Of a stretch of DNA of 64,000 bases, positions 39,327 to 64,000 are shown piece after piece. Each line of letters begins with the position of its first letter. The first letter of the stretch is position 1. Location of the stretch: positions 45,778 through 109,777 of the forward strand of contig JAHJQM010000042.1 of NCBI GenBank assembly GCA_018819285.1, written 5' to 3'. The notes beneath the pieces were generated by a model that saw only the letters and a program-made list of their open reading frames with translations, did not search any database and had not been told where the DNA came from. The DNA is from Candidatus Omnitrophota bacterium (lineage in GTDB: Bacteria; Omnitrophota; Gorgyraeia; Gorgyraeales; Gorgyraeaceae). A program made the translations under genes and the position numbers.

Positions 39327-39363
39327 ACTCTCTCCCTGAACATACCAGCTATATATATTTTAT

Positions 39364-41316: not shown

Positions 41317-41360
41317 CTGGATGCCTTCCCTTGTTCTTTAGATTTTGCAGCGCTACTTGC

Positions 41361-44681: not shown

Positions 44682-44692
44682 ATCCTTTAATA

Positions 44693-48030: not shown

Positions 48031-48048
48031 AACTTTTCTCCTTTTTTA

Positions 48049-50919: not shown

Positions 50920-51562
50920 GGATCCTCCTGAATATCTCAAATAGATCAATTCTATCCTTACGGATCTGCACTGCCAGCCTGCCCTGCAAAGGATGCGGCG
51001 GCATAATATCTTCCGGTATTATCTGGCTAATTCTATATTCTAACCCCAGCCTTAATAACGCGGCATGCGCGATAATAACTGCGTCAAAATCTCCTTTATC
51101 CAGCTGCTCAAGCCGTTCCTCTATATTGCCGCGGATATCCTTTATTATCAGGTCAGGCCTGAACCTTACTACCGCTTCTTTTCTTTTACTGCTGGATGTC
51201 CCCACTATGGCGCTGCGCCATAAATTCCCCAATGCTAGATTGCCTTTTGAAACAAGGCTTTCTAGTTGACTGATAGAACGCGTTAAAGCGGCTATCGTTA
51301 GAGCCTCCGGCATATTTTTTTCTAGATCCTTTGCACTATGGACCGCAACATCTATTTTTCTATCAATAAGGGCCTGCTCTATCTCGCAGGTAAAAAAATC
51401 GCTTTCTTCATGGTCCAAAAGAGTGGCCTTTTTATCCTTATCGCCCGCTGTTTCAATAGAAATGACTTCCATTTGAAGCCATGGCAAAAGTTCCTGTACT
51501 TCTTCAGCCTGCTTGAGGGCAAGCTTTGAAGGACGCACGCCAACTCTAATCTTATCCGACAT
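50909..51562 (-). CDS. hemC: Porphobilinogen deaminase HemC, domains 1-2 only. Domain 3 with the cofactor cysteine is absent.
   Basis: The N-terminus IRVGVRPSKLALKQAEEV and conserved HSAKDL, RGNIEERL and LAVQIR segments align with HemC through about residue 215 of the E. coli enzyme. The ORF then stops, and its stop codon overlaps the cobA RBS/start. Confidence 0.75.
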   Translation of the reverse strand: MSDKIRVGVRPSKLALKQAEEVQELLPWLQMEVISIETAGDKDKKATLLDHEESDFFTCEIEQALIDRKIDVAVHSAKDLEKNMPEALTIAALTRSISQLESLVSKGNLALGNLWRSAIVGTSSSKRKEAVVRFRPDLIIKDIRGNIEERLEQLDKGDFDAVIIAHAALLRLGLEYRISQIIPEDIMPPHPLQGRLAVQIRKDRIDLFEIFRRIHEK

Positions 51563-52529
51563 ATACAGCCTCCGAACGTTCCCTGACTGCGTTTTCTATT
51601 AAATCCGAAGCAAAGCTGGTCCTATCTTTCTTCTCAATATTGCACCTCCGGAATAATCCATTCAGATCCTCCAAGTTATTCAATAAGATGCCTTTCATTC
51701 TTGCTGCATCAGGCTCTATATCCCGCGGCACAGCCAGATCATACACATAAAGCTCGCGAGCGCGCTTTGAAACCACATCTTTAAAATGGTTTTTTTCTAA
51801 AATATAATGCGGGCTGGAAGTGGCGCTTATAAATATATCTGCATCCAAGAGAAGCCCTGCCAGATATTTAAAGGTATATGCCTTTCCGCCTGAAGCCCTT
51901 GCGAGCGATTCAGCCTTTACGTAATTTTTATGCGCCACAAAACTCAGGCTCGCCTGAGGCATCCTGTATCGCGCAAAAAGCTCCGCAATCTTTCCTGTAC
52001 CTGCCACTATCACCTTAAACGGGCCTAATGACCCTCTCCGGTTTATAAAATCATAATAAATAAGAAGCGCGATATTATCATCATGCGTATTAAGGCTCGC
52101 CTCTATACGAATTTTCTTTGATAAAAAAATTATCTCTTGCCAGAAATTCTTAAGCGCAAGGTTAAAAGATTCTTTCCCTGACCATGCCTCTAGCTGGTTT
52201 AAGATCTGAAGCTCACCATGAAGCTGCGATTCCAGGCCACAGCTAAGCCTCAAGCCATGCCTAAAAACCTCATCCTTTCCGTATTTGAAATACGCTCTCC
52301 TGGAAAAATCCGGAAAAGCCCTGCTGAATTCAGATATGCAGCTAAAAGCCTCTTCAGGGCATTCCGCTAGCCCGTAAATCTCTATCCTGTTGCAGGTAAA
52401 AAGCGCCTCTATTCTGCCTGGATGAGCGGACACCCAAAAATCAGCAATATTTCCGCGCTTCCTATAAATATTTTCCCTGACACTAAGAGAAGCGCTTTTG
52501 TAATCTACGCCTGTAAGATAAAAATACAT
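51552..52529 (-). CDS. hemA: Glutamyl-tRNA reductase HemA (short, 325 aa)
   Basis: The active-site region is LFTCNRIEIYG. Also present are GELQILNQ and the NADPH-binding motif VIVAGTGKIAELFA. The C-terminal dimerisation domain appears shortened. The 5' end overlaps sirC by 47 bp. Confidence 0.8.
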   Translation of the reverse strand: MYFYLTGVDYKSASLSVRENIYRKRGNIADFWVSAHPGRIEALFTCNRIEIYGLAECPEEAFSCISEFSRAFPDFSRRAYFKYGKDEVFRHGLRLSCGLESQLHGELQILNQLEAWSGKESFNLALKNFWQEIIFLSKKIRIEASLNTHDDNIALLIYYDFINRRGSLGPFKVIVAGTGKIAELFARYRMPQASLSFVAHKNYVKAESLARASGGKAYTFKYLAGLLLDADIFISATSSPHYILEKNHFKDVVSKRARELYVYDLAVPRDIEPDAARMKGILLNNLEDLNGLFRRCNIEKKDRTSFASDLIENAVRERSEAVYVG

Positions 52530-52977
52530 CCCAGTTCTCCTTTAAAAAATTCTTCAGGTCCCGCGAAAACTTGGGATCCTTTCCATTAGTATATACAGTC
52601 ACTATAGTTTTCCCCGCGCGTAAAACAGCAGGTGAGATAAAATCGCTAAGACTGGCCTGGTCCACTACATTGATTAATATTTTACGTTTTTTCGCCCAGG
52701 CTCTGACCCTTTTATTTATTGCTGAATCAGAGGTAGAGGCAACAATAAGATCTGCTGAATCCAAGTCCCGGGAACTGAATCTTTTCCTAAGCCATTCTAT
52801 TCTGCCAGATTCAGACAGCTGATTCAGTCCAGGCGTTGCATCAGGAGATATTAAACGCACCTTGCTTCCAGCTTCAAGTAGAGAATCGACCTTGCGCTCA
52901 GCAACCTTGCCCCCACCTACCACAACAGTAATTTTATTTTTTAACTTAATTGCTATAGGATAATACTCTCTTGTCAT
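52483..52977 (-). CDS. Precorrin-2 dehydrogenase / sirohydrochlorin ferrochelatase (SirC, CysG N-terminal-domain type)
   Basis: The Rossmann motif is IAIKLKNKITVVVGGGKVAERKVDSLLEAGSKVRLISPD, followed by the SirC-like motif INVVDQ. Confidence 0.7.
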   Translation of the reverse strand: MTREYYPIAIKLKNKITVVVGGGKVAERKVDSLLEAGSKVRLISPDATPGLNQLSESGRIEWLRKRFSSRDLDSADLIVASTSDSAINKRVRAWAKKRKILINVVDQASLSDFISPAVLRAGKTIVTVYTNGKDPKFSRDLKNFLKENWDVFLSYRRRLQKRFS

Positions 52978-52978
52978 A

Positions 52979-53767
52979 TTATTTTGCCTTTAACGGCCTG
53001 GTATGGATGCCGCATTCACCGCCGCATTTACTTGTGCCTATCCAACGTCCTGCGCGCTCGTTATCGTCATTTGTTATCTTTGTACATGGTGCGCATCCAA
53101 GCGACCTGTAACCTTCTGCATAAAGAGGATTTACCGGGACTTCATATAAGGCAAGATACTGCCACACTTCGCGCTCTTTCCAGATAAGGATGGGATTAAG
53201 CTTGACTAGCCCTTTGTCTCTTTCTTCCACCTCCTGAAAATCTGTCCTGGTCCGGCCTTCTGTGCAACGCAGGCCTGTTACCCAGCACCCCACGCCCATT
53301 TCTTCAATGGCCCGCTTAACAGGCTCTACCTTTAATATATCACAGCATTTGTCAGGGCTTGTCTCGTAAAGCCTTTCCGATATTTTGGAATCATTTTTAT
53401 AAACCTTGAGCTCCGGATATTTCTTCACAGTCTCATTCATGAACTTGACAGTCTCTTTTGGTTTAAACCTCGTGGTAACAATAAATCCGCGAATTTTAGG
53501 GTTCACTCTTTTTGCAAGATCCCATACAGCCACTGAATCCTTGCCAAGGCTGTTTGCGACAACGAGCAAATCTCCGTATTTTTCATACATCTCCCTAATC
53601 AATTCCTTTGACCTTTCTACTTTCTCTTTAAAATTCAATGTTTCTACGAGCACCTTCAAATCTTCCTTTTCCGCCAATAAACCCATTTTACTCCCCCTTT
53701 CTTTTTTAAATCTGATAATCTGATCCTTTAATTCTCCCGAATTTGACCTTATTCCAGATTCGTTCAT
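52979..53767 (-). CDS. cysH: Adenylylsulfate (APS/PAPS) reductase, CysH family with Fe-S cysteine pairs
   Basis: The PP-loop is SLGKDS. The C-terminal CysH signature is ECGIH. Additional CC...CxxC cysteines (CCDILKVEP; GCAPCTK) are typical of Fe-S-containing APS reductases. Confidence 0.75.
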   Translation of the reverse strand: MNESGIRSNSGELKDQIIRFKKERGSKMGLLAEKEDLKVLVETLNFKEKVERSKELIREMYEKYGDLLVVANSLGKDSVAVWDLAKRVNPKIRGFIVTTRFKPKETVKFMNETVKKYPELKVYKNDSKISERLYETSPDKCCDILKVEPVKRAIEEMGVGCWVTGLRCTEGRTRTDFQEVEERDKGLVKLNPILIWKEREVWQYLALYEVPVNPLYAEGYRSLGCAPCTKITNDDNERAGRWIGTSKCGGECGIHTRPLKAK

Positions 53768-53927
53768 GTATATAATATAGGAACATCTTTACAATATCAA
53801 TGCCTGCGCCTACATAAAGAGCTTGTTTTATGTTTTTTGTGTAGGCAAAAATAATAGACATTGTTAAGATAAAACTGAATATGCGCCATGATAATGTTTT
53901 TAGTATTGACCTGTTTCTATGTTCCAC
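53706..53927 (-). CDS. Small membrane protein (DUF2061-like)
   Basis: The 73-aa sequence (TLSWRIFSFILT...DIVKMFLYYIHERIWNKV) resembles the DUF2061 family, which is commonly found beside sulfate-assimilation genes. Confidence 0.4.
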   Translation of the reverse strand: MEHRNRSILKTLSWRIFSFILTMSIIFAYTKNIKQALYVGAGIDIVKMFLYYIHERIWNKVKFGRIKGSDYQI

Positions 53928-54283
53928 TGTTAAACCTCTGCATTAATTTAATTCCTGATTATATAATCATAAAAAAACCGCTTATCGTTTTTCTTTTTTT
54001 CCAGTAGCGGCTTACCTCATCCTGCTGGTTATATCTTGATTATTTTTACATGGGCAGGCCTCTCTTTATTCTATTCTCTATAATCTCTATCATATTAATA
54101 GAGTTTAGCATATGAACTTTGTTTTGTCAAGTATTTTTTTAAAATTTTTTAGTAGGTAGAATTCCTTTTGACACCTGATGGCATAAAAAATACCTTGATT
54201 AACGATATTAACCAGGGTTATCTATCATGTTCATTTAGCGTCTCCATAATCTAAACTATCAGCCCTGCGATAGAATATCTCCT

Positions 54284-55612
54284 TTATAATAGCGATTGTT
54301 TTTTCGGTAACATAATACTAAAAATACTGCCTTTGCCTTCCTCGCTATCTACCCAGATCCTTCCATGATGCCTTTCAACAACCTGCTTGGCCATTGAGAG
54401 GCCCAGACCTGTGCCGTCTCTTTCCAGTTCCTTTGCATTAGTAGCGCGGTAGAATTCATTAAAAATATTCGGCAGTTCGTTCTTAGGTATCCCGATGCCG
54501 TTATCGCTGATTTGTATCAGCACTAAATTGTCTTTATCCTCTATGGTTATCTCAACCTTCCCGCCTCTCGGAGTATACTTCACCGAATTAGCCAGAAGAT
54601 TTGCTATGGTTTCCTCTACATAAACCTGCGCGCCTTTTATAAGCCCAATTCCGATATTAATATGGCGGCTTATGGATATGCCTTTAGCCTTTGCCTTTGG
54701 ATCCACTAGAATAATTGCACTTTCCGCAGTTTTAACAAGAGAAAACTCTTTCATTTCTATATCTTTACTCAATTTGATGCGCGTTATATCCAATAGCGCT
54801 TTTATAAAAAATATAAGCTTGCTTGTCCTTTCACCGGCTCTACGTATCAGATCTTTCTGTCCAGAGTTAAGCTCTCCAAGCATGCCTTCTGCCACAGGCT
54901 CAATACAGCTCTGTATTGCAGAGATGTGCTCTTTTATATCATGGGTTACGCGTAAAACATATTCGCTTTTTATCCTGTCTTTTTCTTCCAGAAGCAGATT
55001 TGCCTCTTTCAGGCTTTTTTCCCTATCTTTTAACCTTATTGAAATAGAGCTCGCCATATACGCGGCCAGATACAGAGTGGTGATAAACGCAAAAGATGTT
55101 CCGAATATATATACCTTATTCATATAAAGGTCATTTACCACAAATCCCTTCAGGCAATAATGGTCCAGGATATTAAAATATTCCAGGCCTACCATTAATA
55201 TAAAAAAACATGCTGCGAATGTGGCCTGCAGGAAGCTCGCCCTCCTGGAAAGCAGGATACTTGCAATAATCATATGGAAAATAAAATAGAATATGAACGG
55301 ATTTTCTATGCCACCTGAAAAATGTATAAGGGAGGTAAGTGCGAAGAGGTCCAGGGCAATCTGGAGATTGGCAATAACATTTGTCCTGGTTTCAATATCC
55401 GGAAGCTGTTTTTTTCTGATATGCCTTACATACAAAAAAAATAAAAGATTATACAGGCCTATCAGGATAGAAATTAAATATAGAGGGAAAAACGGGAGAG
55501 AAAGTCTTACTATTTTTTGTACAACGAAAACTGTGAGGATTACGCCTGTAACCGCAATCCATCGCAATCTGATAAGCCAATTGATTCTCTCTAAAAGGCC
55601 TTCATATTTCAT
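54284..55612 (-). CDS. Sensor histidine kinase with polytopic (about 6 TM) N-terminal sensor domain
   Basis: The H-box is VTHDIKEHISAIQS. N/G boxes are present (LLANSVKYTPRGG; DNGIGIP; GTGLGLSMAKQVVERHHGRIWVDSEEGKGSIFSIMLP). Confidence 0.85.
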   Translation of the reverse strand: MKYEGLLERINWLIRLRWIAVTGVILTVFVVQKIVRLSLPFFPLYLISILIGLYNLLFFLYVRHIRKKQLPDIETRTNVIANLQIALDLFALTSLIHFSGGIENPFIFYFIFHMIIASILLSRRASFLQATFAACFFILMVGLEYFNILDHYCLKGFVVNDLYMNKVYIFGTSFAFITTLYLAAYMASSISIRLKDREKSLKEANLLLEEKDRIKSEYVLRVTHDIKEHISAIQSCIEPVAEGMLGELNSGQKDLIRRAGERTSKLIFFIKALLDITRIKLSKDIEMKEFSLVKTAESAIILVDPKAKAKGISISRHINIGIGLIKGAQVYVEETIANLLANSVKYTPRGGKVEITIEDKDNLVLIQISDNGIGIPKNELPNIFNEFYRATNAKELERDGTGLGLSMAKQVVERHHGRIWVDSEEGKGSIFSIMLPKKQSLL

Positions 55613-55618
55613 GCAGGG

Positions 55619-56041
55619 TTATTTGGCTTTGAGCAATTTTTCAACCTTTTCCAGTAATTCCTGTGGCTTAAGAGGTTTCTCCACATAATCGTCAACCGGA
55701 AGCCATGTTTCATCGCCTGCTTCTTTTTTAAAATCCATACCTATCTTGTCCTTAATAGCCGTAAGCATAAGTATCGGTATGTGCTTATAATTTTTATCGT
55801 TTCTGATCTCCCTGGCTACCTCAAAACCTTTATCCATAGTCTCCATCATGACATCCAATATCACAAGGTCCGGTTTCTCAAGTTTTATCTTTTTCAAGCC
55901 CTCTGCCCCGCTCTTGGCGCTTACAACTTTATAGTCCTTGCTTTCCAGAACTACGCGCATTGCTTCAACTATATCAGGGTCGTCGTCAATAATCAAAATT
56001 CTGGCCATACCTAGCCTCCTTAATCTGCTTTCCTCAGCCAA
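55619..56041 (-). CDS. Single-domain response regulator (CheY-like receiver)
   Basis: The 140-aa ORF has the motifs ILIIDDDPDIVE..., DLVILDVMM and LTAIKDK, with Asp and Lys in canonical positions. Confidence 0.85.
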   Translation of the reverse strand: MAEESRLRRLGMARILIIDDDPDIVEAMRVVLESKDYKVVSAKSGAEGLKKIKLEKPDLVILDVMMETMDKGFEVAREIRNDKNYKHIPILMLTAIKDKIGMDFKKEAGDETWLPVDDYVEKPLKPQELLEKVEKLLKAK

Positions 56042-56487
56042 ATATCATAAACATCCAGCAAAAAGAGAGAAAGAAAAATCATTGCTAAAAAAGTACCTGC
56101 GAATTCCAATACCCAGCTGAAAAAAACCTGATTTCCATAAGGGATAAGCCACATTGAGGCTATATCGATAATAATCACTAGAAACGGAAGAATGGCAAAA
56201 ATCCTTTTCATCTTTTCCGAATAGGAAGTAAACATAAATAGCGCTGCGGGCAAAGCAAGAAGATAAAGCGCATAATAAGGAAGATACTTATGCGTATGAT
56301 CTGCCAGTTCCATGGACTCCATTGAACCGTATGCCTTTGCAATCAATGCCGGTTTCATTTCCGTATCCTGCCATATATGAAGAAGCAGGGAAAGATAAAC
56401 TAGCCCCACCATACATAATAAAGTCGTCATCAATAATTTTGCGCTTATCGGCGCTTTTGAAAGCCTTATTTTTTCCATCTTAGCCAT
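56020..56487 (-). CDS. Hypothetical 4-TM membrane protein (possible partner of the FMN-binding protein)
   Basis: The 155-aa ORF has four hydrophobic helices. It lies immediately downstream of the FMN-binding protein gene. Confidence 0.4.
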   Translation of the reverse strand: MAKMEKIRLSKAPISAKLLMTTLLCMVGLVYLSLLLHIWQDTEMKPALIAKAYGSMESMELADHTHKYLPYYALYLLALPAALFMFTSYSEKMKRIFAILPFLVIIIDIASMWLIPYGNQVFFSWVLEFAGTFLAMIFLSLFLLDVYDIWLRKAD

Positions 56488-56499
56488 ACCTCCTTCCTT

Positions 56500-57090
56500 T
56501 TACTTGTTAAGATAAAGTTCCTCATATAGAACAATAGCCTTTTTTACGGCAAACGTGGCGCAACGCGAAGAAATCGTAGCCCCGCTCACGCCTGTAATAT
56601 CCTTTCCCACAGTAAGTTTGGACTTGCTGGTTTTGCCATCATACTGACTAAGATAGCTTCGGCGCGCAATAGGCTTGCCCCTCTTTTCTTCATAACTTAA
56701 TACCTCTACCCTGATTACAGCACCATCAAGGTCTAAAGCTATGATAAAATCCACTGGCCCCCATTTCCCAGGCTCCTCATCAAAAATAACCACACCAGTC
56801 TTTGTGCCATTTTTTGAAGCAAAATGAAACTCAATGCTGGTATCGGCCTCAACCTCTTTTGACTTCGATCCTTTCTGAAAATAAACAAGGCTTCCGTCCA
56901 GCCTCTCCCTGATTTTGGATAACTCCGGATCAGCGAGCTCCTTTGTTTCAATGGTGATATCTACGCCTTCTCCGAAAACTTTTTTCAAGGCGTCTTCTCT
57001 TGTCATAAGACGAACCGCATAAGTAACTCCTGAAAAACTAAACCAGATGCATAGCGCTACGGTTAAAAATAAAATACACTTTCTAAACAT
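56500..57090 (-). CDS. Secreted FMN-binding domain protein (FMN_bind; substrate of ApbE flavinylation)
   Basis: The ORF has a signal peptide and the flavinylation motif DITGVSGATISS ([S/T]GAT[I/S]S, with Thr the covalent-FMN acceptor). Its start codon abuts the apbE stop. Confidence 0.7.
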   Translation of the reverse strand: MFRKCILFLTVALCIWFSFSGVTYAVRLMTREDALKKVFGEGVDITIETKELADPELSKIRERLDGSLVYFQKGSKSKEVEADTSIEFHFASKNGTKTGVVIFDEEPGKWGPVDFIIALDLDGAVIRVEVLSYEEKRGKPIARRSYLSQYDGKTSKSKLTVGKDITGVSGATISSRCATFAVKKAIVLYEELYLNK

Positions 57091-57091
57091 G

Positions 57092-58129
57092 CTACTGCCT
57101 CCCTGTATTTTCCGCCTCTTTAATAAAATTAAGGCTATGTTTTAATCCGGAAGAATATAATATTTTCCCGGATTCGGTTATAATAATCGCCTCCATATCT
57201 GGGATTTCTTCTAATCTTCTCAACCCTTTTTCTGGGCCCATGATAAAAGGAATCTTTGTCCAAGCCTGCGCGAGAACAGGATCAGGATAAATAAGTATAA
57301 CGCTTTGAACCCCCTGGGTAGGATACCCTGTCTTTGGATTAAATATATGATGATACCTTTTGCCGTCTTTAATAAAAAATCTTTCATAATCCCCTGAGCC
57401 CATCACTGCCAGGTCTTCCACCTCTACATATCCCAGAGTTCCTTCGCCGCGCGGATCTTTAATGCCTACCTTCCATAACTTTGAGCCTTTTTTTCCAAGC
57501 GCGTATATGTCTCCTCCTGCGTCTATTAAGGCTGACGCTACTCCATTGGATTTTAGAACCCTTATTGCTTCGCTGATTGCATAGCCTTTCGCAACCCCTC
57601 CCAGATCAATCTTCACGCCTTCCCGAGTCCCGGTCAATCTGCCTGCATCAAGAGAAAGATATTTATACCCGACGCTGACCAGACAATCTTTTATCTCCTG
57701 CGACGCAGGAAGATAGTATTCCTTACTATAAAATCCCCACAGTTCAGCCAGCGGCGCTATGGTAATATCAAATGCGCCATGAGATTCTTCGCTTATCTTC
57801 AGCGCTTTCCGGATAAGGTTAATTATCTCCTTATCGGAAACAGACTCAAGCGTATGATTAAACGCATAAACAGGGCTTTTTGGATTAAGCGAGTTAAACT
57901 TTATGTCTATTTCCTGCATCCTGTTTAAAGCCAGCTCTATTGCTTTTAAAATAACTGCCTTTGGCCCAACCGCGTAAATAGTCACGTAAGTGTCCATCAT
58001 AAAACGGGTCTCTTTTTCTACATGAAATCTGCTGGCATTGTACGATCTTATTGCCCAGAGCCCTGCGAATATCGCTATTATTACAATAAATATTGGTTTT
58101 AATTTTTTCACTTTAAACTTTATCTCCAC
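57092..58129 (-). CDS. apbE: FAD:protein FMN transferase ApbE/Ftp
   Basis: The 345-aa ORF has a signal/anchor sequence and ApbE motifs (DLGGVAKGYA; DAGGDIYALG; MGSGDYERFF). Confidence 0.85.
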   Translation of the reverse strand: MEIKFKVKKLKPIFIVIIAIFAGLWAIRSYNASRFHVEKETRFMMDTYVTIYAVGPKAVILKAIELALNRMQEIDIKFNSLNPKSPVYAFNHTLESVSDKEIINLIRKALKISEESHGAFDITIAPLAELWGFYSKEYYLPASQEIKDCLVSVGYKYLSLDAGRLTGTREGVKIDLGGVAKGYAISEAIRVLKSNGVASALIDAGGDIYALGKKGSKLWKVGIKDPRGEGTLGYVEVEDLAVMGSGDYERFFIKDGKRYHHIFNPKTGYPTQGVQSVILIYPDPVLAQAWTKIPFIMGPEKGLRRLEEIPDMEAIIITESGKILYSSGLKHSLNFIKEAENTGRQ

Positions 58130-58187
58130 TAATTCCTAAGATCGCAATAGGGCAGGCTTAATCCTGCCCTATTGCTAACACAAACCT

Positions 58188-59474
58188 TTAGAACGTCGTT
58201 CTCCAGCCTATTGTATACCTGTTAGCTCTTATACTAGCTGAACTATTTGACCTTTCGCCGTTAATCAAGGAATAATCTCCTATGATTGTAGAGCTCGGAG
58301 TTATATTGTAATTTATGCCCACTGTTGTGGTATCATAGTTGTCGCTTAACATGGTGCTTGATCCTGTTTTGTAATTCTCCGCGTGGCTGTATTTAACCAA
58401 ACCAACCCATTCAGGAGTAAAATTATACAGGGCTCTGGCATAATACCCTTCTTTTTTTCCATCAGCTTTTGTAGAACCTGTAACAACCAGGTCATCCCAT
58501 TTCCTGTAGATGTATTCGCTGGTTATATTGAGTTTTTCATGCTTCCAGTCAAATCCAACAACAGACTGAAAACTGCTGTCAGGATTACCCCAGTTTCCAA
58601 ACGCAACAGATCCCAGAAGCCTTAACTGCGTATGGAACAATTCAGGTGCTATGTGCAATAGTAGCGTTTTAGAACTATCGTTATCTGCATATTTACTTGA
58701 AGCGTTACCATTCAATAAGCTGACATATACAGGCAGCGATACCTTTTCAAAATCAAAGTTTTTGTAGAGCTCTATTCCTGAGTCATGCCAGGACTCTAAA
58801 TAAGCGAGCCCCTGATTCTGGTGGTATTGCTCATGCCACCATGTTTCCTTAGAATATTCCTCAGAAAACATTGGATTAAATACACCCGTCTTTAGTTCTA
58901 CGCCTTTGGGTAGAAGCGCTGTTATGGTCGCAGTATGGATTGAAGTACTGCTCGTAGCGCTGCTGTTCCTCGCAATATCAGACCCTATAGACGGGGTTGC
59001 GCTAGCAGACACTGAGTTATCTATCGCCACGTCAAGCTTCAAGATATCAGATAACTCCTTATTTAAATAGAGATACAGATGATGAATGCCCGCTGAAATA
59101 TTATTATGCTGCGCATCTTTACCTTCACCATTAGCGCCTCTGACTACTCCCTCTGAGGCATCAAACATGTATAACTTCAGGTGTCCGCCTACGCTCGCTC
59201 CTTCCATTAATCCGGCAGGGCCTTCTTTTATCGCATCTACTGCCCTTGCGAGCTCCGGAACTTTCTTAATCTCAGCAGCCTGAGCCTGCTGCTTTGTTTC
59301 AACAGCCTGAACCTTAGAATTCAACTGCTCTATGGTTTTCTGTTGATTGTTTATTGTTTCCTGTAAAGCCCTTACCTGCTCCTTTAGGTCTGAGAGATCA
59401 TCTGCCCAAACCGCTCCTGTGCTAAAAACTAAAAACCCGCACAAGACTAACAACAAAATACTGAATTTCAACAT
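58188..59474 (-). CDS. Putative outer-membrane beta-barrel porin with an N-terminal coiled coil. It is a paralog of the ORF at 25802..27121.
   Basis: The ORF track gives 58188..59636. The likely start is MLKFSILLLVLCGFLVFSTGAVWA at 59474, preceded by an AAGGAGGTG RBS. A heptad coiled coil follows (LSDLKEQVRALQETINNQQKTIEQLNSKVQAVE...). The barrel is beta-rich and ends ...GWRTTF. Confidence 0.55.
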   Translation of the reverse strand: MLKFSILLLVLCGFLVFSTGAVWADDLSDLKEQVRALQETINNQQKTIEQLNSKVQAVETKQQAQAAEIKKVPELARAVDAIKEGPAGLMEGASVGGHLKLYMFDASEGVVRGANGEGKDAQHNNISAGIHHLYLYLNKELSDILKLDVAIDNSVSASATPSIGSDIARNSSATSSTSIHTATITALLPKGVELKTGVFNPMFSEEYSKETWWHEQYHQNQGLAYLESWHDSGIELYKNFDFEKVSLPVYVSLLNGNASSKYADNDSSKTLLLHIAPELFHTQLRLLGSVAFGNWGNPDSSFQSVVGFDWKHEKLNITSEYIYRKWDDLVVTGSTKADGKKEGYYARALYNFTPEWVGLVKYSHAENYKTGSSTMLSDNYDTTTVGINYNITPSSTIIGDYSLINGERSNSSASIRANRYTIGWRTTF

Positions 59475-59491
59475 CACCACCTCCTTTGTTT

Positions 59492-60682
59492 TTACTGATA
59501 CTCTGTTTCTAAATAAAGATTTACTATTATATCGCTCATAAACGTAATCAGATTGCGCGGATCTTTTGCTTTTTTGAAATCCAACTTCCGGATGCCGGCC
59601 CTGGCTATTTCCCAGAACATGGGTATGGCTGTCCAAGATAAAGAAAGTATAGCCGCTACCCTTTTTCCTGAAATCCCTAAAGGCTTTAAAGGTGCCAGTA
59701 TCCTGGATAATCCCTTACCAAGATCTTCTGGAGAAGTGGTCCTGGCGAGCAGAGAACTGGCCCATATGAGGCAAATTAATCGCAACGCAAAGATAATTCC
59801 TGCATTCAGCCCCTCGCTTGTAATATTGAAATATGCGAAGTGAGATATAACATGTTTCCCGGAATTAAAAAATACCGGGAAGAGAAACGATACAAATATC
59901 AAAGTAGAGCACTTTCTTGTGCTTGAAAAAAGATACCGGAATGATGTCGTTGACATAGCAGCTACTGCTGTAAAAAATACAAAAAGCCCTGCATAAAACC
60001 ATAGGCTGCTGAAAAATAGCACTGCGAGCGAAAGTATAACGACGCCTGCTATCTTAATCTCAGGCAATATCCGATGTACAATAGAATCCCCTGCCAGATA
60101 ATGACTAAGTTTTAATCCCTGATATTCCTTTTTAGCCTTCGACACCGATTTGCAACCTTCTGCCTCTTTCAGTTTCAGGCAAATCTTACTGGAGACTGCG
60201 CCTGTAAACCAGCCTATAAAAACCGCTCCTATGGATAGCCATGGTAAAAATATAAATATCCCTGCGTGCTTTACCATTATCAGATATGCAAGGCCCAGCT
60301 GGGTAATATTATGCACAAGCGCGCCTGCAACGCTAATTCCCACTATGCTGAATAAACGCTGTTTTGTGGTATGCGCTAGCCAGTATAAAAATCCCATGGT
60401 AAGCGTGCTCATAACGCCTGCTGCGAAGCTAAGTATAAATCCAGGCGACATAAAAGTGCCCATTATAAAAGAGCTCAACACAGTACGAAGTACTGTTATT
60501 TCAAGGCTATAGCCAAAGCCTAGATTCATCAGCGCCACCAGCGTGATTATATTTGCCAGGCCAAGCCTTAATCCTGGAATAGGGTGAGGTATAAGGGATT
60601 CAGCGATCTGCAGGACGCAGGCAAGAGATACTAAAAGCGCTACTTTATACATATTATTGTCTGTTATTTGATTTTCTTTCAT
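59492..60682 (-). CDS. Fusion membrane protein: N-terminal Gx-transporter / 'heptaprenyl diphosphate synthase component I'-like (PF07456) domain plus C-terminal ECF-transporter T-component (EcfT/CbiQ)-like domain
   Basis: The N-terminal half reads IPHPIPGLRLGLANIITLVALMNLGF (a PF07456-like signature). The C-terminal half has EcfT-like coupling-helix motifs (ARTTSPEDLGKGLSRILAPL...; EIARAGIRKLDF). Confidence 0.55.
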   Translation of the reverse strand: MKENQITDNNMYKVALLVSLACVLQIAESLIPHPIPGLRLGLANIITLVALMNLGFGYSLEITVLRTVLSSFIMGTFMSPGFILSFAAGVMSTLTMGFLYWLAHTTKQRLFSIVGISVAGALVHNITQLGLAYLIMVKHAGIFIFLPWLSIGAVFIGWFTGAVSSKICLKLKEAEGCKSVSKAKKEYQGLKLSHYLAGDSIVHRILPEIKIAGVVILSLAVLFFSSLWFYAGLFVFFTAVAAMSTTSFRYLFSSTRKCSTLIFVSFLFPVFFNSGKHVISHFAYFNITSEGLNAGIIFALRLICLIWASSLLARTTSPEDLGKGLSRILAPLKPLGISGKRVAAILSLSWTAIPMFWEIARAGIRKLDFKKAKDPRNLITFMSDIIVNLYLETEYQ

Positions 60683-60683
60683 A

Positions 60684-61097
60684 TTAGTAAGCTACTGCGT
60701 CTATAATCGCTGGGCCTTTTGATTTGATCTCAACCAATACCTGGTTAGGCACGCATACTATAGTTTCGTCGTTATACTTTATCCATCCCATATTTTTACA
60801 TATATGATGGGGACAATCAGTATTTAGAACTCTGATCTTCCCGTCTTTAACCTCAAGCTGCATCTTTCCGTCAAGAATAGCGATTATTTTATCCTTGCCC
60901 AACCCACTCTCTTCCAGAAGTTTATCTTTCTGATATATACAAACCGCGCTCGGCCCGGAAGAAGGCTGAAAACGTTTATGAATAACCCAGAAAGAAACTA
61001 TGGAAACAAGTAAAGTCAATCCTATAAAAACCAAGTCAAACCGCGTTGTCTGATAAAAATCCCTGCCTGTTTCTTTCCTTTGAAAATTTTTCATCAA
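60684..61097 (-). CDS. NusG domain II-containing membrane-anchored protein (PF07009-like)
   Basis: The 137-aa ORF has an N-terminal TM and the characteristic Cys pattern KIRVLNTDCPHHICKNMGWIKYNDETIVCVPNQVLVEI. Confidence 0.6.
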   Translation of the reverse strand: MMKNFQRKETGRDFYQTTRFDLVFIGLTLLVSIVSFWVIHKRFQPSSGPSAVCIYQKDKLLEESGLGKDKIIAILDGKMQLEVKDGKIRVLNTDCPHHICKNMGWIKYNDETIVCVPNQVLVEIKSKGPAIIDAVAY

Positions 61098-61099
61098 AA

Positions 61100-62092
61100 T
61101 CAGGAATAAAAACTTTTTTTCAAAACAAAATCCGCAAGATCAAAAAGGCTGTCTCTATAATCAGAATTAGGAAGAGTGCTTAATCCTTCTTTTCCTGAAT
61201 CAAGATAGAACGAGGCCATTCTCTTTGTCTCGGCTATCGCATCTGAATTAAGAAGCCTTGCTTTTATATTCTTTAAACAATCTTTATCTCTGACCTTAAG
61301 CAGCCTCTTCAAATTCCCTCTTTCATCCTCATTTACAGATTCAAGTAAATTTAATAATGGCAGTGTTATCTCTCCGACGCTTATGTCCTGTCCGGGGGTC
61401 TTACCTAGATCCTGCCTCTCTCCTATAAGATCCATATAATCATCCGCTATCTGGAACGCTATGCCGAAGTTTAAGCCATATTTTTTTAACGAGAGTTGTA
61501 TAGGTCTCCTGCAGTTTGACAGCATTGCGCCTGCCTGGCATGACGCTGCAAATAAACTGGCTGTCTTTTTTTTCAATATCAGGAAATACCTTTTCTTTAA
61601 AAGCGAAATATTATCCCTTTCGCACACCTGCATAAGCTCCCCCTTACACATCTCTTTGGCGGCTGTACTTATGCAATCCAGGACATCAATATTGCCACAC
61701 GTAGCTATCAGGTTGAAGGCTATGGAATACAGATAATCGCCTAAAGCAATGGAAACATCCTGGCCAAATCTGGAATTAACTGTAGGTTTATCATGCCGGA
61801 AACACGCATGATCAATAACATCATCATGAATCAGGGAGGCTGTATGTATCAACTCTATGCTGGAAGCGACTTTAATCAATCTGTCGCCTGCAAGAGGAAA
61901 TTCTCCTCCTGCGCCTGCCTTTGCTGATAGGATAACCAGCGCAGGCCTCAGTCTTTTACCAGGGGTTTCTAGCAATAGTCTGCTTATCCTAGACATTGGC
62001 CTCGTGTTAACCCTGCCCAAAGACTCCCTATAAAGGTCTTCGACCCTGCCAAGCTCTTTTTTTATAGGTTTATATATATCTTTCAGGTCCAT
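61100..62092 (-). CDS. Polyprenyl diphosphate synthase (IspB / heptaprenyl-octaprenyl synthase-like; DmkB-like)
   Basis: Two Asp-rich motifs are present: LIHDDVIDHACFRHDK (DDxxD) and FQIADDYMDL. Confidence 0.85.
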   Translation of the reverse strand: MDLKDIYKPIKKELGRVEDLYRESLGRVNTRPMSRISRLLLETPGKRLRPALVILSAKAGAGGEFPLAGDRLIKVASSIELIHTASLIHDDVIDHACFRHDKPTVNSRFGQDVSIALGDYLYSIAFNLIATCGNIDVLDCISTAAKEMCKGELMQVCERDNISLLKKRYFLILKKKTASLFAASCQAGAMLSNCRRPIQLSLKKYGLNFGIAFQIADDYMDLIGERQDLGKTPGQDISVGEITLPLLNLLESVNEDERGNLKRLLKVRDKDCLKNIKARLLNSDAIAETKRMASFYLDSGKEGLSTLPNSDYRDSLFDLADFVLKKSFYS

Positions 62093-62093
62093 C

Positions 62094-63020
62094 TTATCTC
62101 CAAATCCTATTCAGCAGAAAACCTCCGCTTAATAATATCCCTGTAAGCATATGCAAAGCAATGGTCAAAGAATTTGCCGGAAGCAATTCGCGGACGCCGC
62201 CATAATTCCTGCCGGATACATTGATTATTTTAAAAGCCATGGGAAGCGTCAATAACACAGCCAATGTATATAAAGGTATAATTCTGAATACCGCAAATAT
62301 CAAGATAGACGCATATGTCAGGCCTATTAGAAGATGATACAGCCTGACTGCTTTTTCCTTGCCCAGCAAGACTACCAATGTCCTCTTGCCTGTTTTCTCG
62401 TCAGCCTCATAATCAGGAAATTCATTTATATAAAGGATTAGCCCTACCAGGATACCGACGGGTATAGAAGCGCAAAACGCCGGCCAGGAAAACCTCATCG
62501 CCTGAACATAATACGCGCCAAGCACCACGAGAGGCCCAAAACAAAATCCCACAATAAGTTCCCCTGACCCGAGATAACCTATCTTCAAAGGTTCAGCTGT
62601 ATAAAAAATTCCTAAAAATACGCCTATAATCCCCATGAAAAGCACAATATTTGTCTTGAGGGCGTAATTTATCCATAGCCCTATAATAGAGCCTATAATA
62701 AAACACGCCAGGCTAAACAAAAATATTCCTTTAGGCTTCACTAACCTGTCCTGGATAACTCGGCTTCCGCCGTTAAAAGGCGTATGGTTTTTATTCAACG
62801 GGTCGTTTCCTGTCCTGTGGTCAAAATAATCATTCATCAGATTGGTTCCGGTATGAAGAAAACTGATGCCTGTCACAACCAGAATAAAATTTACAATGTT
62901 GAATCTTCCTGTTTCCGACCACGCTATTATAGTACCGAGTATTACAGGTACGAGCGTGGCTGTTAAAAACGGCGCACGAGTTGCTTTTATCCAGATTGCA
63001 AGACGCTTAAAATTTATCAT
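62094..63020 (-). CDS. menA: 1,4-dihydroxy-2-naphthoate polyprenyltransferase (MenA/UbiA family; DmkA-like)
   Basis: The 308-aa polytopic ORF has the UbiA-family motifs NDYFDHRTGND and a second Asp-rich region (YINEFPDYEADEKTGK). Confidence 0.8.
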   Translation of the reverse strand: MINFKRLAIWIKATRAPFLTATLVPVILGTIIAWSETGRFNIVNFILVVTGISFLHTGTNLMNDYFDHRTGNDPLNKNHTPFNGGSRVIQDRLVKPKGIFLFSLACFIIGSIIGLWINYALKTNIVLFMGIIGVFLGIFYTAEPLKIGYLGSGELIVGFCFGPLVVLGAYYVQAMRFSWPAFCASIPVGILVGLILYINEFPDYEADEKTGKRTLVVLLGKEKAVRLYHLLIGLTYASILIFAVFRIIPLYTLAVLLTLPMAFKIINVSGRNYGGVRELLPANSLTIALHMLTGILLSGGFLLNRIWR

Positions 63021-64000
63021 AGTATATGTATATATCCTCTATGCCCTTCTTGGTAAGCACAGCTATGGAAGCGTCTATCATGGGCGGCGGGCCACAAAGA
63101 TACGCCTCTGTATGCCCGTTTCCAACCACTGTTCTTTCCACAACCTGGGTAATCAGGCCTGTCTCGCCTCTCCAGCTATCCTGAGGCTTTGGCTCTGAAA
63201 GCGCAGGGATATATTTAAAATTCGGGAATTCTTTTGAAAGTATAAAAAGCTCTTCTGTAAAGAAAAGGTCTTTTTTGCTGCGGGCGCCGAAGAAATACGT
63301 GACCTTTCTCGGCATATTTTTTTCTTTAAGATGAAGTAATATGGAGCGTATCGGAGCCATACCGCAGCCGCCGCCAATGCATACTATATCCCTGTCAGAA
63401 TCCTCCCTCAGGTAAAAATCCCCAAAAGGCCCTGTAAGCGTAATCTTGTCGTTTATATCAAGCGCTTCATGTATATACGAAGAGCACATGCCATTCGGCA
63501 CTAAACGCACAATCAGCTCCACTATATTATTCTGCGAAGGCCTGGATGCGATAGAATACGCCCGGAACTCATCTGTTTCAGGTATCTTAAACTGCACATA
63601 CTGGCCTGGTTTGAAGCTTATAGCGGAAGGTTCTTCTAATTTTAAAAAAATATGTTTTATATCCACGGTAAGGTCTAATATCTTGACCACTACCGCCTTA
63701 TACTCCTGAGCAGATAAAAGTTCCGAGGAAATTAAGACCTCGATATCATTCTTTACCTTAACCTGGCACGCAAGCCTGACTCCTCTGAGCCTATCCTTGC
63801 GGGAGATAAACACCTCTTCGGTCGGCAATATGCTGCCGCCTCCGCTCAAAATCTCTACTTTGCAATACCCGCAAGTTGCCTTGCCTCCGCAGGCTGAAGG
63901 CACAAATATCTTGTTCTGCGCAAAATAGCTCAGAAGATTATCGCCTCCGTTTACAGCCAGAATCTTTTCCTTGTTAATGGTAATCTTGCACTCCCCATAG
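63007..64000 (-). CDS. NqrF-like oxidoreductase (2Fe-2S ferredoxin domain, FAD-binding domain, NAD(P)H-binding domain). Partial: the N-terminus lies beyond the window end.
   Basis: The minus-strand frame stays open to position 64000 (...YGECKITINKEKILAVNGGDNLLSYFAQNKIFVPSACGGKATCGYCKVEILSGGG...). The 2Fe-2S Cys motif is CGGKATCGYC. The FAD-binding motif is RAYSIAS. The NAD-binding glycine-rich region is CIGGGCGMAPIRSIL. Confidence 0.7.
   Translation of the reverse strand, partial: YGECKITINKEKILAVNGGDNLLSYFAQNKIFVPSACGGKATCGYCKVEILSGGGSILPTEEVFISRKDRLRGVRLACQVKVKNDIEVLISSELLSAQEYKAVVVKILDLTVDIKHIFLKLEEPSAISFKPGQYVQFKIPETDEFRAYSIASRPSQNNIVELIVRLVPNGMCSSYIHEALDINDKITLTGPFGDFYLREDSDRDIVCIGGGCGMAPIRSILLHLKEKNMPRKVTYFFGARSKKDLFFTEELFILSKEFPNFKYIPALSEPKPQDSWRGETGLITQVVERTVVGNGHTEAYLCGPPPMIDASIAVLTKKGIEDIYIYYDKF

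Follow-up and report, generated by a model that had tools for sequence, protein, structure and literature searches.

In a Candidatus Omnitrophota genome, we found an operon that, judging by the proteins it encodes, is most likely a new, diderm form of flavin-based extracytosolic electron transfer. Within it, genes for an outer-membrane porin, the flavin transferase ApbE and a secreted FMN-binding flavoprotein (FMN_bind2) form a fixed unit, and the core of the gene set recurs in more than 100 loci from several phyla. With moderate confidence we read the operon as a complete electron-transfer chain of this kind for a two-membrane cell, in which the porin would pass the substrate or shuttle. Beyond domain identity, the assignments go by guilt by association, from which we infer extracellular electron transfer.

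Gene content and layout of the operon

The DNA analysed (the window) is a 64,000-nt stretch of assembly GCA_018819285.1, contig JAHJQM010000042.1, positions 45,778-109,777 of the forward strand. Its host, Candidatus Omnitrophota, is an uncultured bacterium with two membranes. The initial annotation of the window described nine adjacent, tightly spaced minus-strand genes followed directly by a two-component system. The open reading frames and Pfam matches bear this out (Table 1): the nine genes are separated by 1-76 nt or overlap, and a response regulator and then a histidine kinase lie immediately downstream. From nqrF to the kinase, the successive distances are -14 (the overlap between nqrF and the menA-type gene), 1, 5, 1, 17, 76, 1, 21, 11 (between the 4-TM gene and the response regulator) and 6 nt. 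A 356-nt gap follows the kinase, the final gene of the operon. Five more operon genes lie upstream of the window end on locus L010, which is the same contig (0 mismatches across 11,907 nt). The window holds the distal two-thirds of a ~16-gene operon, and the spacing suggests that its genes are co-transcribed. No multihaem cytochrome, terminal reductase of known type or ABC ATPase signature was found in the window, and no metal transporter is encoded within or beside the operon.

Table 1. Operon features in the 64,000-nt window
Feature	Position	Strand	Basis
Histidine kinase, membrane-embedded 6TM_PilS-type sensor	54284..55612	-	ORF; PF25323 + PF02518 in L010
Single-domain response regulator	55619..56008	-	ORF; PF00072 on identical L010 gene
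4-TM inner-membrane protein, PF27139 (Aq_1264_TM)	56020..56487	-	Homologues, AF2 model
Secreted RnfG-like flavoprotein (FMN_bind2)	56500..57090	-	FMN_bind PF04205, 2.8e-11
ApbE/FmnB FAD:protein FMN transferase	57092..58129	-	PF02424, 1.2e-76, whole model length
Dedicated outer-membrane porin	58188..59474	-	AF2 model, Foldseek, synteny
EetB-FmnA fusion: PF07456-family ECF S-component + ECF T-component	59492..60682	-	Pfam: PF07456, 3.1e-38 (residues 17-166); CbiQ/EcfT, 2.1e-17 (residues 200-360)
EetA homologue, N-terminal TM anchor + NusG_II domain	60684..61097	-	PF07009, 7.6e-23
Long-chain-type polyprenyl diphosphate synthase (DmkB analogue)	61100..62092	-	PF00348, 3.2e-65
MenA-type 1,4-dihydroxy-2-naphthoate prenyltransferase (DmkA analogue)	62094..63020	-	PF01040 (UbiA), 2.8e-35
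nqrF, cut by window end	63007..64000	-	Pfam Fer2 + FAD_binding_6 + NAD_binding_1; full gene 357 aa

The nqrF gene starts at ~64080, 80 nt past base 64000. Its product has an N-terminal TM helix followed by 2Fe-2S, FAD and NADH domains, and the full-length protein from L010 passes the NCBIfam nqrF model TIGR01941 (309.9 bits vs a cut-off of 295). The initial annotation had identified an NqrF-type reductase in place of Ndh2; the identity holds, but the protein is not a stand-alone enzyme. Since nqrF is the sixth and last gene of an rnfC-like/nqrB/nqrC/nqrD/nqrE/nqrF operon that runs past the window, a whole NQR-type complex replaces Ndh2. The A subunit of the complex still satisfies the RnfC model, with two 4Fe-4S cysteine motifs retained, and the operon encodes its own RnfG/NqrC. 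The MenA-type protein exceeds the cut-off of the NCBIfam menA model TIGR00751 (119 vs 102 bits), and its gene is syntenic in loci L001, L012, L014, L015, L107, L122 and L136. The polyprenyl synthase is closest to the HepT, solanesyl and octaprenyl synthase models of NCBIfam, scoring under the cut-off with all of them.

By analogy, the EetB-FmnA fusion is predicted to be an FAD exporter that supplies periplasmic ApbE. EetB corresponds to PF07456, and fusions of EetB with ECF-T were already known; PF07009 carries the label EetA in Data Set S1 of the same study, and the FAD-export role of EetA, EetB and FmnA was tested genetically in Listeria (Rivera-Lugo 2023, PMC9973259). ApbE, with its N-terminal membrane anchor, is predicted to face the periplasm. 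FMN_bind2 has a signal peptide of the cleavable type with an invariant Ala at position -1. The flavinylation motif reported earlier is intact: GVSGATISS is located at residue 169, with Thr172 as the predicted site, and SGATISS is invariant throughout the family alignments. The closest solved relatives are the RnfG chains 7zc6_G and 9eri_G. FMN_bind2 is an RnfG paralogue separate from the RnfG/NqrC of the upstream NQR operon.

The gene ahead of apbE, annotated as a coiled-coil outer-membrane β-barrel, encodes a signal peptide, a periplasmic coiled coil (~residues 24-83) and a C-terminal Phe, and its AF2 model (pLDDT 80.8) is a 16-strand barrel. Foldseek matches are classical porins (PorB, 2.7e-12, as well as DcaP, OprP/OprO and OmpM1). 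Conserved signatures are found in loops L2 (SATPSIGS) and L3 (FSEEYxxETWWHEQYH); L3 is aromatic and acidic, contains a helix and folds inward. The protein contains no [ST]GA[ST] motif and has no Pfam match to DUF3570. The family is small, with 75 representatives at E<=1e-30 among 1.84 billion, and its genes always directly precede those of ApbE and the flavoprotein; this is no stray nutrient porin, the outcome that the initial annotation had named as speaking against its reading. That annotation also suggested that the barrel carries flavins or electrons. The model shows a diffusion porin of 16 strands whose loop constricts the pore; it could let flavins, chelates and other small molecules through, but not conduct electrons along a protein wire in the manner of MtrB. 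Elsewhere the same position is taken by a non-orthologous SLH-type porin (L055) or by a subfamily lacking the coiled coil.

The 4-TM protein is confidently modelled by AF2 as a four-helix membrane bundle (pLDDT 87.9), for which fold comparison gave no informative relative. All 79 of its 79 homologues carry PF27139 (Aq_1264_TM). Residues D41, E60, E91, K94, D108 and M112 are invariant; conserved His pairs are absent from this protein, and no redox-cofactor ligands are recognisable in it. It may act as the partner of FMN_bind2 in the membrane. Regulation of the operon probably falls to the adjoining two-component system. Its kinase lacks a periplasmic domain, and the same kinase type is found beside the module in L001, L006, L012 and L136.

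Conservation of the porin-ApbE-FMN_bind unit

The initial annotation proposed a neighbourhood comparison in related genomes, and the order porin-ApbE-FMN_bind does recur: in 33 of 34 genome loci with the porin as seed, and in 42 of 42 metagenome loci with the flavoprotein as seed. Altogether, the order was found in 42 species-representative genomes and 80 metagenome contigs, placing the linkage far beyond chance. Our literature search turned up no earlier account of the unit, in agreement with the earlier impression that the gene order was new.

The unit exists in two mutually exclusive versions. In Omnitrophota, Elusimicrobia and others, it is accompanied by MenA, polyprenyl synthase, the 4-TM PF27139 protein, a two-component system and often NQR. 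Several lineages share the association of this cytochrome-free version with MenA, polyprenyl synthase and the two-component system. In Desulfobacterota, the neighbours are cytochrome b (CytB), 8-haem and 3-haem cytochromes and an OmcA/MtrC-like decahaem lipoprotein (PF22113, 3.7e-57), and no two-component system adjoins. The 4-TM protein occurs together with OmcA-like cytochromes in 0 of 81 loci. Minimal Omnitrophota versions consist of response regulator, porin, ApbE, FMN_bind and histidine kinase, and no electron-input module is encoded at these loci. Rnf genes adjoin the unit in L046, whereas no NQR or RNF is near it in L003-L009, L013, L016, L017 and every Desulfobacterota locus. A divergent locus, L054, has the order Fur-FTR1-porin-TM4-FMN_bind-ApbE-ExbB-ExbD-TonB; in one further variant ribBA follows, and copper-handling genes are found beside some Omnitrophota copies.

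A proposed electron-transfer chain and its alternatives

In the proposed chain, the NQR-type complex (RnfC-like A, NqrB-E homologues and NqrF) would, by homology, oxidize NADH and reduce a menaquinone-type quinone. The final steps of quinone synthesis would be provided by MenA and the polyprenyl synthase, encoded right behind the complex. EetB-FmnA and EetA, together with ECF ATPases encoded elsewhere, would deliver FAD to the periplasm, as in the homologous Listeria system. Membrane-anchored ApbE would use the exported FAD to link FMN covalently to Thr172 of the flavoprotein, as homology and the invariant motif suggest, and probably flavinylates the NqrB/NqrC homologues too. The flavoprotein may be reduced at the inner membrane; speculatively, the donor is menaquinol via the 4-TM protein, or the periplasmic flavin of NQR. 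Strict synteny and fold suggest that the trimeric-type porin passes a small redox-active solute through the outer membrane; a free flavin acting as shuttle, a chelated metal and a quinone-like compound are candidates. The solute would connect the periplasmic flavoprotein to external acceptors or donors. In Desulfobacterota, the core appears to be coupled to a quinol module of cytochrome b/multihaem type and to the OmcA/MtrC-like lipoprotein, which would replace the 4-TM protein and NQR. The position of the Desulfobacterota copies among such genes ties the unit to extracytosolic or extracellular electron transfer.

The genes could instead serve nutrition rather than respiration, with a metal entering through the porin, being reduced by the flavoprotein as in an assimilatory periplasmic ferric or metal reductase, and then being imported. 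The Fur-FTR1 and ExbB-ExbD-TonB flanks of L054, the copper-handling neighbours and the invariant Asp, Glu and Met of the 4-TM protein, which could bind metal, would fit such a role, and flavinylation genes are often colocalized with iron transporters (Meheust 2021, PMC8238504). However, the iron-uptake context is just one among more than 120 loci, and the operon here has no metal transporter. Links to NADH:quinone oxidoreductase, quinone synthesis or OmcA-like decahaems with quinol-oxidising cytochromes suggest a respiratory-scale flow, leaving the assimilatory role a minor possibility. It is unlikely, too, that the genes are a cofactor-maturation appendix of NQR/RNF for quinone and flavinylation, in which porin, FMN_bind2 and 4-TM protein have no electron role beyond the inner membrane. 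The nine genes do come straight after rnfC-like/nqrBCDE/nqrF on the same contig, and ApbE and the FAD exporter are expected there because NqrB/NqrC maturation needs them anyway. In Vibrio nqr operons, apbE comes after nqrF at the operon end. Similarly, eetB is colocalized with Rnf in 572 Clostridia genomes (PMC9973259), and L046 also has adjoining Rnf genes. The initial annotation regarded an RNF/NQR operon context as evidence against its reading. Such a context is present in this genome, yet it loses force because the complex has its own RnfG/NqrC and the unit has no RNF/NQR neighbour in many genomes. FMN_bind2 is a distinct, highly conserved family with its own invariant flavinylation site, and a maturation role leaves the dedicated porin unexplained.

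A two-component system beside nearly every cytochrome-free version, with response regulator and histidine kinase bracketing the three genes in L005, L016-L018, L046 and L053, raises the idea of a sensing accessory, whose flavoprotein tells the kinase the redox state of porin-borne solutes. We consider this quite improbable: the Desulfobacterota versions have no adjoining two-component system, the kinase in the window offers no periplasmic domain for the flavoprotein to contact, and regulators beside their target operon are the simpler reading. Least probable is a physical conduit through the outer membrane, with the flavoprotein inside the barrel like MtrA in MtrB. The Desulfobacterota order of porin, periplasmic redox protein and surface decahaem lipoprotein resembles mtrCAB/pcc, and the conserved coiled coil could serve as a docking stalk. 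However, 16 strands with an inward, helix-containing L3 describe a diffusion porin, and a folded 170-residue FMN_bind domain is too large for its pore.

Comparison with known systems

The porin shares a coiled-coil stalk followed by a 16-strand barrel with DcaP of Acinetobacter and OmpM of Negativicutes (Foldseek matches 6eus and 8byt), but no sequence relationship to DcaP is detectable, and gene context and conserved L2/L3 signatures differ. DUF3570, a predicted outer-membrane protein flavinylated by ApbE (Meheust 2021, PMC8238504), is likewise of outer-membrane type and genetically linked to ApbE; here, the porin itself has no flavinylation motif, and flavinylation is predicted for its partner, a soluble protein encoded separately. 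As in MtrCAB of Shewanella and Pcc/Ext/OetABI of Geobacter and syntrophic SRB, genes for a barrel and a periplasmic redox protein adjoin, and in the Desulfobacterota relatives so does a gene for an OmcA/MtrC-family surface lipoprotein. Those systems use a sheath of 20-26 strands around a multihaem cytochrome, whereas ours pairs a diffusion porin with a flavoprotein, in the window without any cytochrome.

The core subunit order, the equivalog-level NqrF match and the downstream ApbE are shared with Vibrio nqrABCDEF-apbE, and the FAD exporter beside RNF with the Clostridia RNF operons with eetB/apbE known from the literature. The present operon departs from these by its inserted genes, which encode enzymes of quinone synthesis, a porin, a second secreted FMN_bind protein and a 4-TM protein, and the porin-ApbE-FMN_bind part also stands apart from NQR/RNF in other genomes. 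The RnfC-like A subunit with its 4Fe-4S motifs also differs from Vibrio-type NQR.

The flavin-based extracellular electron transfer locus of Listeria monocytogenes and other Firmicutes comprises Ndh2, DmkA, DmkB, EetA, EetB, FmnA, FmnB and PplA. The initial annotation likened the nine genes to it, and the parts are indeed true homologues: DmkA, DmkB, EetA, EetB, FmnA and FmnB counterparts share one operon with an extracytosolic FMN_bind protein bearing a flavinylation motif. The likeness in function, extracellular electron transfer, is suggested by these genes. The differences are a diderm host, a six-subunit NQR-type complex for Ndh2, fusion of EetB with FmnA, a single-domain, RnfG-like secreted flavoprotein for the two-domain lipoprotein of Listeria, and the addition of a dedicated porin, the PF27139 4-TM protein and an attached two-component system.

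Gene content of the operon and of its NQR-type complex

The main finding of this analysis is a conserved unit of porin, ApbE and flavoprotein genes that occurs in two alternative wirings. All nine minus-strand open reading frames proposed in the initial annotation were found in the window, and Pfam and NCBIfam HMM searches assigned them to the proposed families (see table); the porin and the 4-TM protein matched no family in these searches. The two-component system expected just downstream is also in place. The window comes from a Candidatus Omnitrophota bacterium. The UbiA-family protein scores 119 bits against the NCBIfam menA model TIGR00751 (cut-off 102). The spacing between the operon genes is -14 to 76 nt. 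Scanning 53500-64000 for promoter and terminator consensus sequences yielded the same counts as in shuffled controls, a result with no bearing on co-transcription. No open reading frame in the window carries at least two CXXCH motifs.

Features of the operon, its surroundings and the compared loci (L-numbers denote genomic or metagenomic loci fetched for comparison; L010 is the window's own contig, reaching past base 64000)
Feature	Location	Strand	Assignment
Alpha-amylase-family cluster	34069-46696	minus	five large genes
Tetrapyrrole and sulfur-assimilation block	47305-53767	minus	
PAPS reductase, longest open reading frame	52979-53767	minus	
DUF2061 membrane protein	53706-53927	minus	73 aa
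Histidine kinase	54284-55612	minus	followed by a 356-nt gap
Response regulator	55619-56008	minus	single-domain
4-TM protein	56020-56487	minus	PF27139
FMN_bind flavoprotein	56500-57090	minus	PF04205, 2.8e-11
ApbE	57092-58129	minus	PF02424, 1.2e-76; FmnB/ApbE
Porin	58188-59474	minus	
EetB-FmnA fusion	59492-60682	minus	PF07456, 3.1e-38, and CbiQ/ECF-T, 2.1e-17, in a single polypeptide
EetA	60684-61097	minus	NusG_II PF07009, 7.6e-23
Polyprenyl synthase (DmkB-type)	61100-62092	minus	polyprenyl_synt PF00348, 3.2e-65
MenA-type DHNA prenyltransferase (DmkA-type)	62094-63020	minus	UbiA; NCBIfam menA TIGR00751
nqrF, 3' part	63007-window end	minus	Pfam Fer2, FAD_binding_6 and NAD_binding_1
NQR-type genes	L010:4437-10014, just past window base 64000		last gene is window 63007-64000
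Additional coiled-coil porin	L009:15288-16688		
Divergent unit copy	L054:1476-8060, JGI 3300076214 contig Ga0637471_0000027		
Locus with SLH-porin	L055:5629-11489, ENA ERZ24794656 NODE_150		FMN_bind, EetA, EetB-FmnA, TM4, SLH-porin, ApbE
ribBA	L136:9902-11008, Logan SRR29054604_395		DHBP synthase and GTP cyclohydrolase II

The names of the flavin-handling genes follow work on Listeria, in which EetB (PF07456) is the ECF S-component of an FAD exporter, FmnA is its T-component, and the exporter supplies FAD to the extracytosolic ApbE homologue FmnB (Rivera-Lugo et al., 2023; PMC9973259). In that study's data set, PF07009 NusG_II proteins are labelled EetA. Mapping its family names onto the operon identifies EetA, an EetB-FmnA fusion and FmnB/ApbE. 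Fusions of EetB with an ECF T-component were already noted in the same study, which also counted 3,328 genomes where eetB colocalises with eetA, 2,169 where it does so with apbE and 572 Clostridia where it does so with Rnf. No ABC ATPase signature is found in the window, so the ECF ATPases must, as in Listeria, come from genes at another locus.

The first of the nine annotated genes is the 3' part of a 357-aa NqrF cut by the window end. An exact-protein look-up of MenA led to L010, which is identical to the window across 11,907 nt and carries the complete gene. The full-length protein scores 309.9 bits against the equivalog model TIGR01941 (cut-off 295) and has 2Fe-2S, FAD and NADH domains as well as an N-terminal hydrophobic segment, a transmembrane helix. 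It is preceded in order by an RnfC-like protein of 499 aa, NqrB/RnfD, a 194-aa FMN_bind protein (NqrC/RnfG) and two Rnf-Nqr proteins (NqrD/RnfE and NqrE/RnfA); the core subunits belong to PF03116, PF04205 and, for two genes, PF02508. Flavinylation sites are present in the G/C subunit (TGAT) and the D/B subunit (TTATPL-type). It had been proposed that Ndh2 is replaced here by an NqrF-type reductase. The homology to NqrF holds, and the replacement is a whole NQR-type complex instead of a lone reductase, since its operon lies upstream of the window end.

The A subunit scores above the cut-off of the rnfC model TIGR01945 (272 bits, cut-off 246) and below every NqrA cut-off in NCBIfam. The glycine-rich FMN/NADH motif of RnfC seems to be degenerate in it. 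With an RnfC-like A subunit, a bona fide NqrF and no RnfB, the complex looks, as judged from its sequences, like an RNF-to-NQR hybrid. It is reminiscent of the intermediate that the RNF-to-NQR evolutionary scenario postulates (Reyes-Prieto 2014; PMC4014512), and the operon flags an apparent intermediate between the two enzymes. The same RnfC-like/NqrF arrangement, also lacking RnfB, occurs in three other loci (L001, L012 and L015).

The operon is followed directly downstream by a sirohaem/tetrapyrrole and sulfur-assimilation block, which encodes PAPS reductase, precorrin-2 dehydrogenase (NAD_binding_7), HemA, HemC, uroporphyrinogen methylase, HemB, HemL and an unusually short NIR_SIR sulfite/nitrite reductase (241 aa). 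The small DUF2061 gene runs into the PAPS reductase open reading frame if this is given its longest possible start; on L010 the gene caller picks a shorter PAPS reductase of 235 aa. The cluster of alpha-amylase-family genes includes a GlgE-type maltosyltransferase of 667 aa and a TreS-Mak-like amylase/maltokinase-cap fusion of 1106 aa, which suggests a GlgE alpha-glucan pathway.

Porin, flavoprotein and 4-TM protein

The proposed coiled-coil outer-membrane beta-barrel is predicted to be a 16-strand porin. An AF2 model built with 37 homologues as the alignment (pLDDT 80.8, barrel mostly above 85) has a signal peptide, a long N-terminal helix that forms a coiled coil (residues 24-83) and 16 antiparallel strands, of which the fifth and sixth are joined by a loop that contains a helix and takes the classical L3 position. 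The sequence ends in GWRTTF, with a final Phe. By its signal peptide, strand number, inward-folded L3 and C-terminal aromatic residue, the modelled barrel is of the classical trimeric-type 16-strand porin class (PorB/OmpF/OprP). Foldseek matched it to many diffusion porins with E-values of 1e-12 to 1e-8, among them PorB (2.7e-12), Omp38, OmpT/U, DcaP, chitoporin, OmpM1, and OprP and OprO (about 2e-9); MtrB-type sheaths are absent from these matches. The only match of the sequence profile to the PDB was a spurious coiled-coil one. An MtrB-like sheath is ruled out by the strand number, and a flavinylated DUF3570-like protein by the lack of a [S/T]GA[S/T] motif and of a Pfam match, which also excludes the locus as a DUF3570 system.

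Two segments are near-invariant in the porin family, FSEEYxxETWWHEQYH in L3 and SATPSxGS in L2. Among 1.84 billion cluster representatives, the family profile found 75 at E<=1e-30 and 278 at E<=1e-3; so few relatives indicate a small specialised family and not a general porin. The window porin has no match to PF07396 (Porin_O_P) even at E<=10, and many homologues carry precomputed 'faint' or 'weak' PF07396 matches. Additional paralogous coiled-coil porins of 466-482 aa, Porin_O_P-like, are encoded a few genes from the unit in L060 and L061 (about 8 kb upstream) and in L009, adjoining two-component systems.

The flavoprotein carries the flavinylation motif intact, as annotated (GVSGATISS at residue 169). 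Its family has invariant EPGKWGP and ISGATISS segments. The signal peptide has an invariant Ala at -1 and a small residue at -3, and by the -3/-1 rule it is probably cleaved. The nearest solved relatives are RnfG subunits (7zc6_G, 2.8e-10), and the protein is clearly distinct from the RnfG/NqrC of the same operon.

The 4-TM protein, whose family was assigned to PF27139 from precomputed matches, is confidently modelled by AF2 as a four-helix membrane bundle. A structure search with the model gave no informative relative. Its alignment has invariant Asp, Glu, Lys and Met residues and no conserved His pairs, ruling out a dihaem cytochrome b.

Conserved synteny and the two versions of the unit

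Gene-neighbourhood comparison linked the barrel firmly to its neighbours. Porin, ApbE and FMN_bind genes were present together in all six porin-homologue loci looked up. A scan with the porin alignment, one genome per GTDB species, returned 42 loci from Omnitrophota, many Desulfobacterota and one Elusimicrobia; in 33 of the 34 that contain the flavoprotein, phmmer-based synteny placed porin and ApbE directly upstream of it. In the sole exception, L026, the porin itself adjoins the flavoprotein on the upstream side. When metagenome contigs were scanned independently with the flavoprotein alignment, 80 loci were obtained, and the two upstream genes were porin and ApbE wherever both were recognisable (42/42). 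This synteny clearly rules out an ordinary porin that is unlinked to the cluster elsewhere.

The porin slot can hold divergent members. In L055, from another lineage, it is occupied by an OmpM-like porin with an SLH domain (476 aa), which is 26% identical to the barrel of the window porin over 399 residues and shares SATPSIGS, and in L136 by a subfamily of 370 aa that lacks the coiled coil. One Desulfobacterales MAG (JAUYIZ01) has the unit twice, on different contigs: L026 encodes an MHC, a 3-haem protein, CytB, porin, FMN_bind and an OmcA-like protein, with no ApbE, and L041 encodes EetB-FmnA, porin and ApbE. The divergent copy in L054 lies in an iron-uptake setting, in the order Fur, FTR1 permease, coiled-coil Porin_O_P, PF27139 4-TM, FMN_bind, ApbE, ExbB, ExbD and TonB.

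The unit comes in two versions that exclude each other. Version A, to which the window belongs, is cytochrome-free and was seen in Omnitrophota, Elusimicrobia and metagenome contigs of unassigned origin; it comprises MenA, polyprenyl synthase, EetA, EetB-FmnA, porin, ApbE, FMN_bind, the PF27139 4-TM protein, a 6TM-sensor kinase and a response regulator, often with NQR-type genes. Minimal Omnitrophota versions retain only response regulator, porin, ApbE, FMN_bind and histidine kinase. One version A cluster, in L136, has the bifunctional riboflavin-synthesis gene ribBA directly after the flavoprotein gene. In version B, from Desulfobacterota, an 8-haem cytochrome, a 3-haem protein, a cytochrome b (Ni_hydr_CYTB), EetA and EetB-FmnA precede the unit, and the last gene encodes a protein of ~780 aa with 10-11 CXXCH motifs. 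This protein belongs to the OmcA/MtrC family (PF22113, 3.7e-57, and PF22112) and has a lipoprotein signal peptide in every case. The 4-TM protein alone is present in 35 loci, the OmcA-like protein alone in 46, and both in none. Its alternation with the version B cytochrome modules makes the 4-TM protein, with low confidence, a candidate membrane partner of the flavoprotein.

Proposed electron path and comparison with known systems

Every functional step given here is inferred from the genes present, their domains, the conserved motifs, the fold and the strict synteny. The most parsimonious reading of the locus is a chain for flavin-based electron transfer in the periplasm. Electrons would pass from NADH through the NQR-type complex to (demethyl)menaquinone, which may be made with the operon's own MenA and polyprenyl synthase, and then, perhaps by way of the 4-TM protein or of NQR's periplasmic flavin, to the secreted covalent flavoprotein. 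FAD would come from EetA/EetB-FmnA, and ApbE would attach the FMN. A protein wire cannot run through a 16-strand porin; the dedicated porin most likely lets a small redox-active solute move between periplasm and outside. Candidate solutes are a flavin acting as shuttle or cofactor (FMN has a mass of 456 Da), a metal chelate and a mediator resembling a quinone. It is a speculation that the conserved aromatic and acidic residues of L3 fit a specific aromatic solute. In Desulfobacterota, the OmcA/MtrC-like lipoprotein may be the extracellular partner; members of this family bind flavins. Electron flow could also be inward.

None of four alternatives fits the full pattern as well as the flavin chain. 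Assimilatory metal reduction, which overlaps with it mechanistically, is an unlikely role for the unit, and pure cofactor maturation for the NQR-type complex, whose own subunits carry flavinylation sites, somewhat more so. It is improbable that the unit, encoded beside a two-component system, is a sensing accessory of that system. A physical conduit formed by porin and flavoprotein, given the size of the barrel, is hardly credible.

The flavin chain can be extended to a reading that, taken as a whole, we offer only tentatively and consider doubtful. The unit would add a class of electron gateway in the outer membrane, the third after MtrCAB and Pcc. Its 16-strand porin would be selective for flavins, with a coiled-coil stalk that serves as the docking site of the covalently flavinylated RnfG-like protein, and this protein would exchange electrons with the outside via flavins moving in the pore. 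The Desulfobacterota unit would feed surface cytochromes of OmcA/MtrC type. Omnitrophota and Elusimicrobia would carry out cytochrome-free extracellular respiration with an NQR-type pump and dedicated menaquinone, and the PF27139 4-TM protein of this version would be the long-sought link from quinol to flavoprotein.

The gene order had been annotated as undescribed as a unit. The full texts within reach of our search contain no description of it, and an unremarked listing in a supplement is possible. In the accessible parts of the flavinylation-cluster catalogues (Meheust 2021; Huang 2024), neither a porin nor NusG/ECF parts appear in such a context, and papers on Desulfobacterota clusters for extracellular electron transfer (EET) mention neither flavin nor ApbE.

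The operon is likened in its working to the Listeria flavin-EET locus, with which it shares seven homologous components. DmkA and DmkB have counterparts in MenA and the polyprenyl synthase; EetA, EetB and FmnA are present, the latter two in a single polypeptide; and an extracytosolic ApbE/FmnB is accompanied by an FMN_bind substrate with [S/T]GA[S/T]. The two differ in Ndh2 and in the architecture of PplA. There is no Ndh2 with a C-terminal membrane segment here, and the NqrF of the rnfC-like/nqrBCDE/nqrF operon would oxidise NADH; the flavoprotein, unlike PplA, is single-domain and has no lipobox. The porin, the 4-TM protein and the NQR-type complex are additional. The annotated interpretation is partly supported: it stands for the homologous components and for the linked porin, and is corrected for the exchange of Ndh2, whose place is taken by a whole NQR-type complex. 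With Na+-NQR (nqrABCDEF) the complex shares NqrF and an NqrB/C/D/E-type core with flavinylation sites, whereas the cofactor-less NqrA is absent and the A subunit retains two CxxCxxCxxxC motifs (4Fe-4S cysteines). In porin-cytochrome conduits (MtrCAB/Pcc), a barrel of 20-26 strands sheathes a periplasmic multihaem cytochrome. The barrel class here, with 16 strands, L3 and matches to diffusion porins, and the absence of haem proteins in the window rule out such a conduit.

To our knowledge, flavin-based EET is understood only in single-membrane Firmicutes, and crossing of the outer membrane in two-membrane bacteria is thought to require large barrel/multihaem conduits. The present unit, conserved and with sharp limits, joins FAD export, ApbE and a secreted flavoprotein to a small porin of its own, which suggests another solution that works with a shuttle. 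Omnitrophota, Elusimicrobia and many Desulfobacterales carry the unit, and in the Desulfobacterales it adjoins OmcA/MtrC-like cytochromes. It provides concrete candidates for the passage of flavins across the outer membrane and for the step that links the quinone pool to PplA-type flavoproteins, and would extend the potential for EET to cytochrome-poor, uncultured ultra-small bacteria. The unit and both of its wirings merit experimental follow-up.
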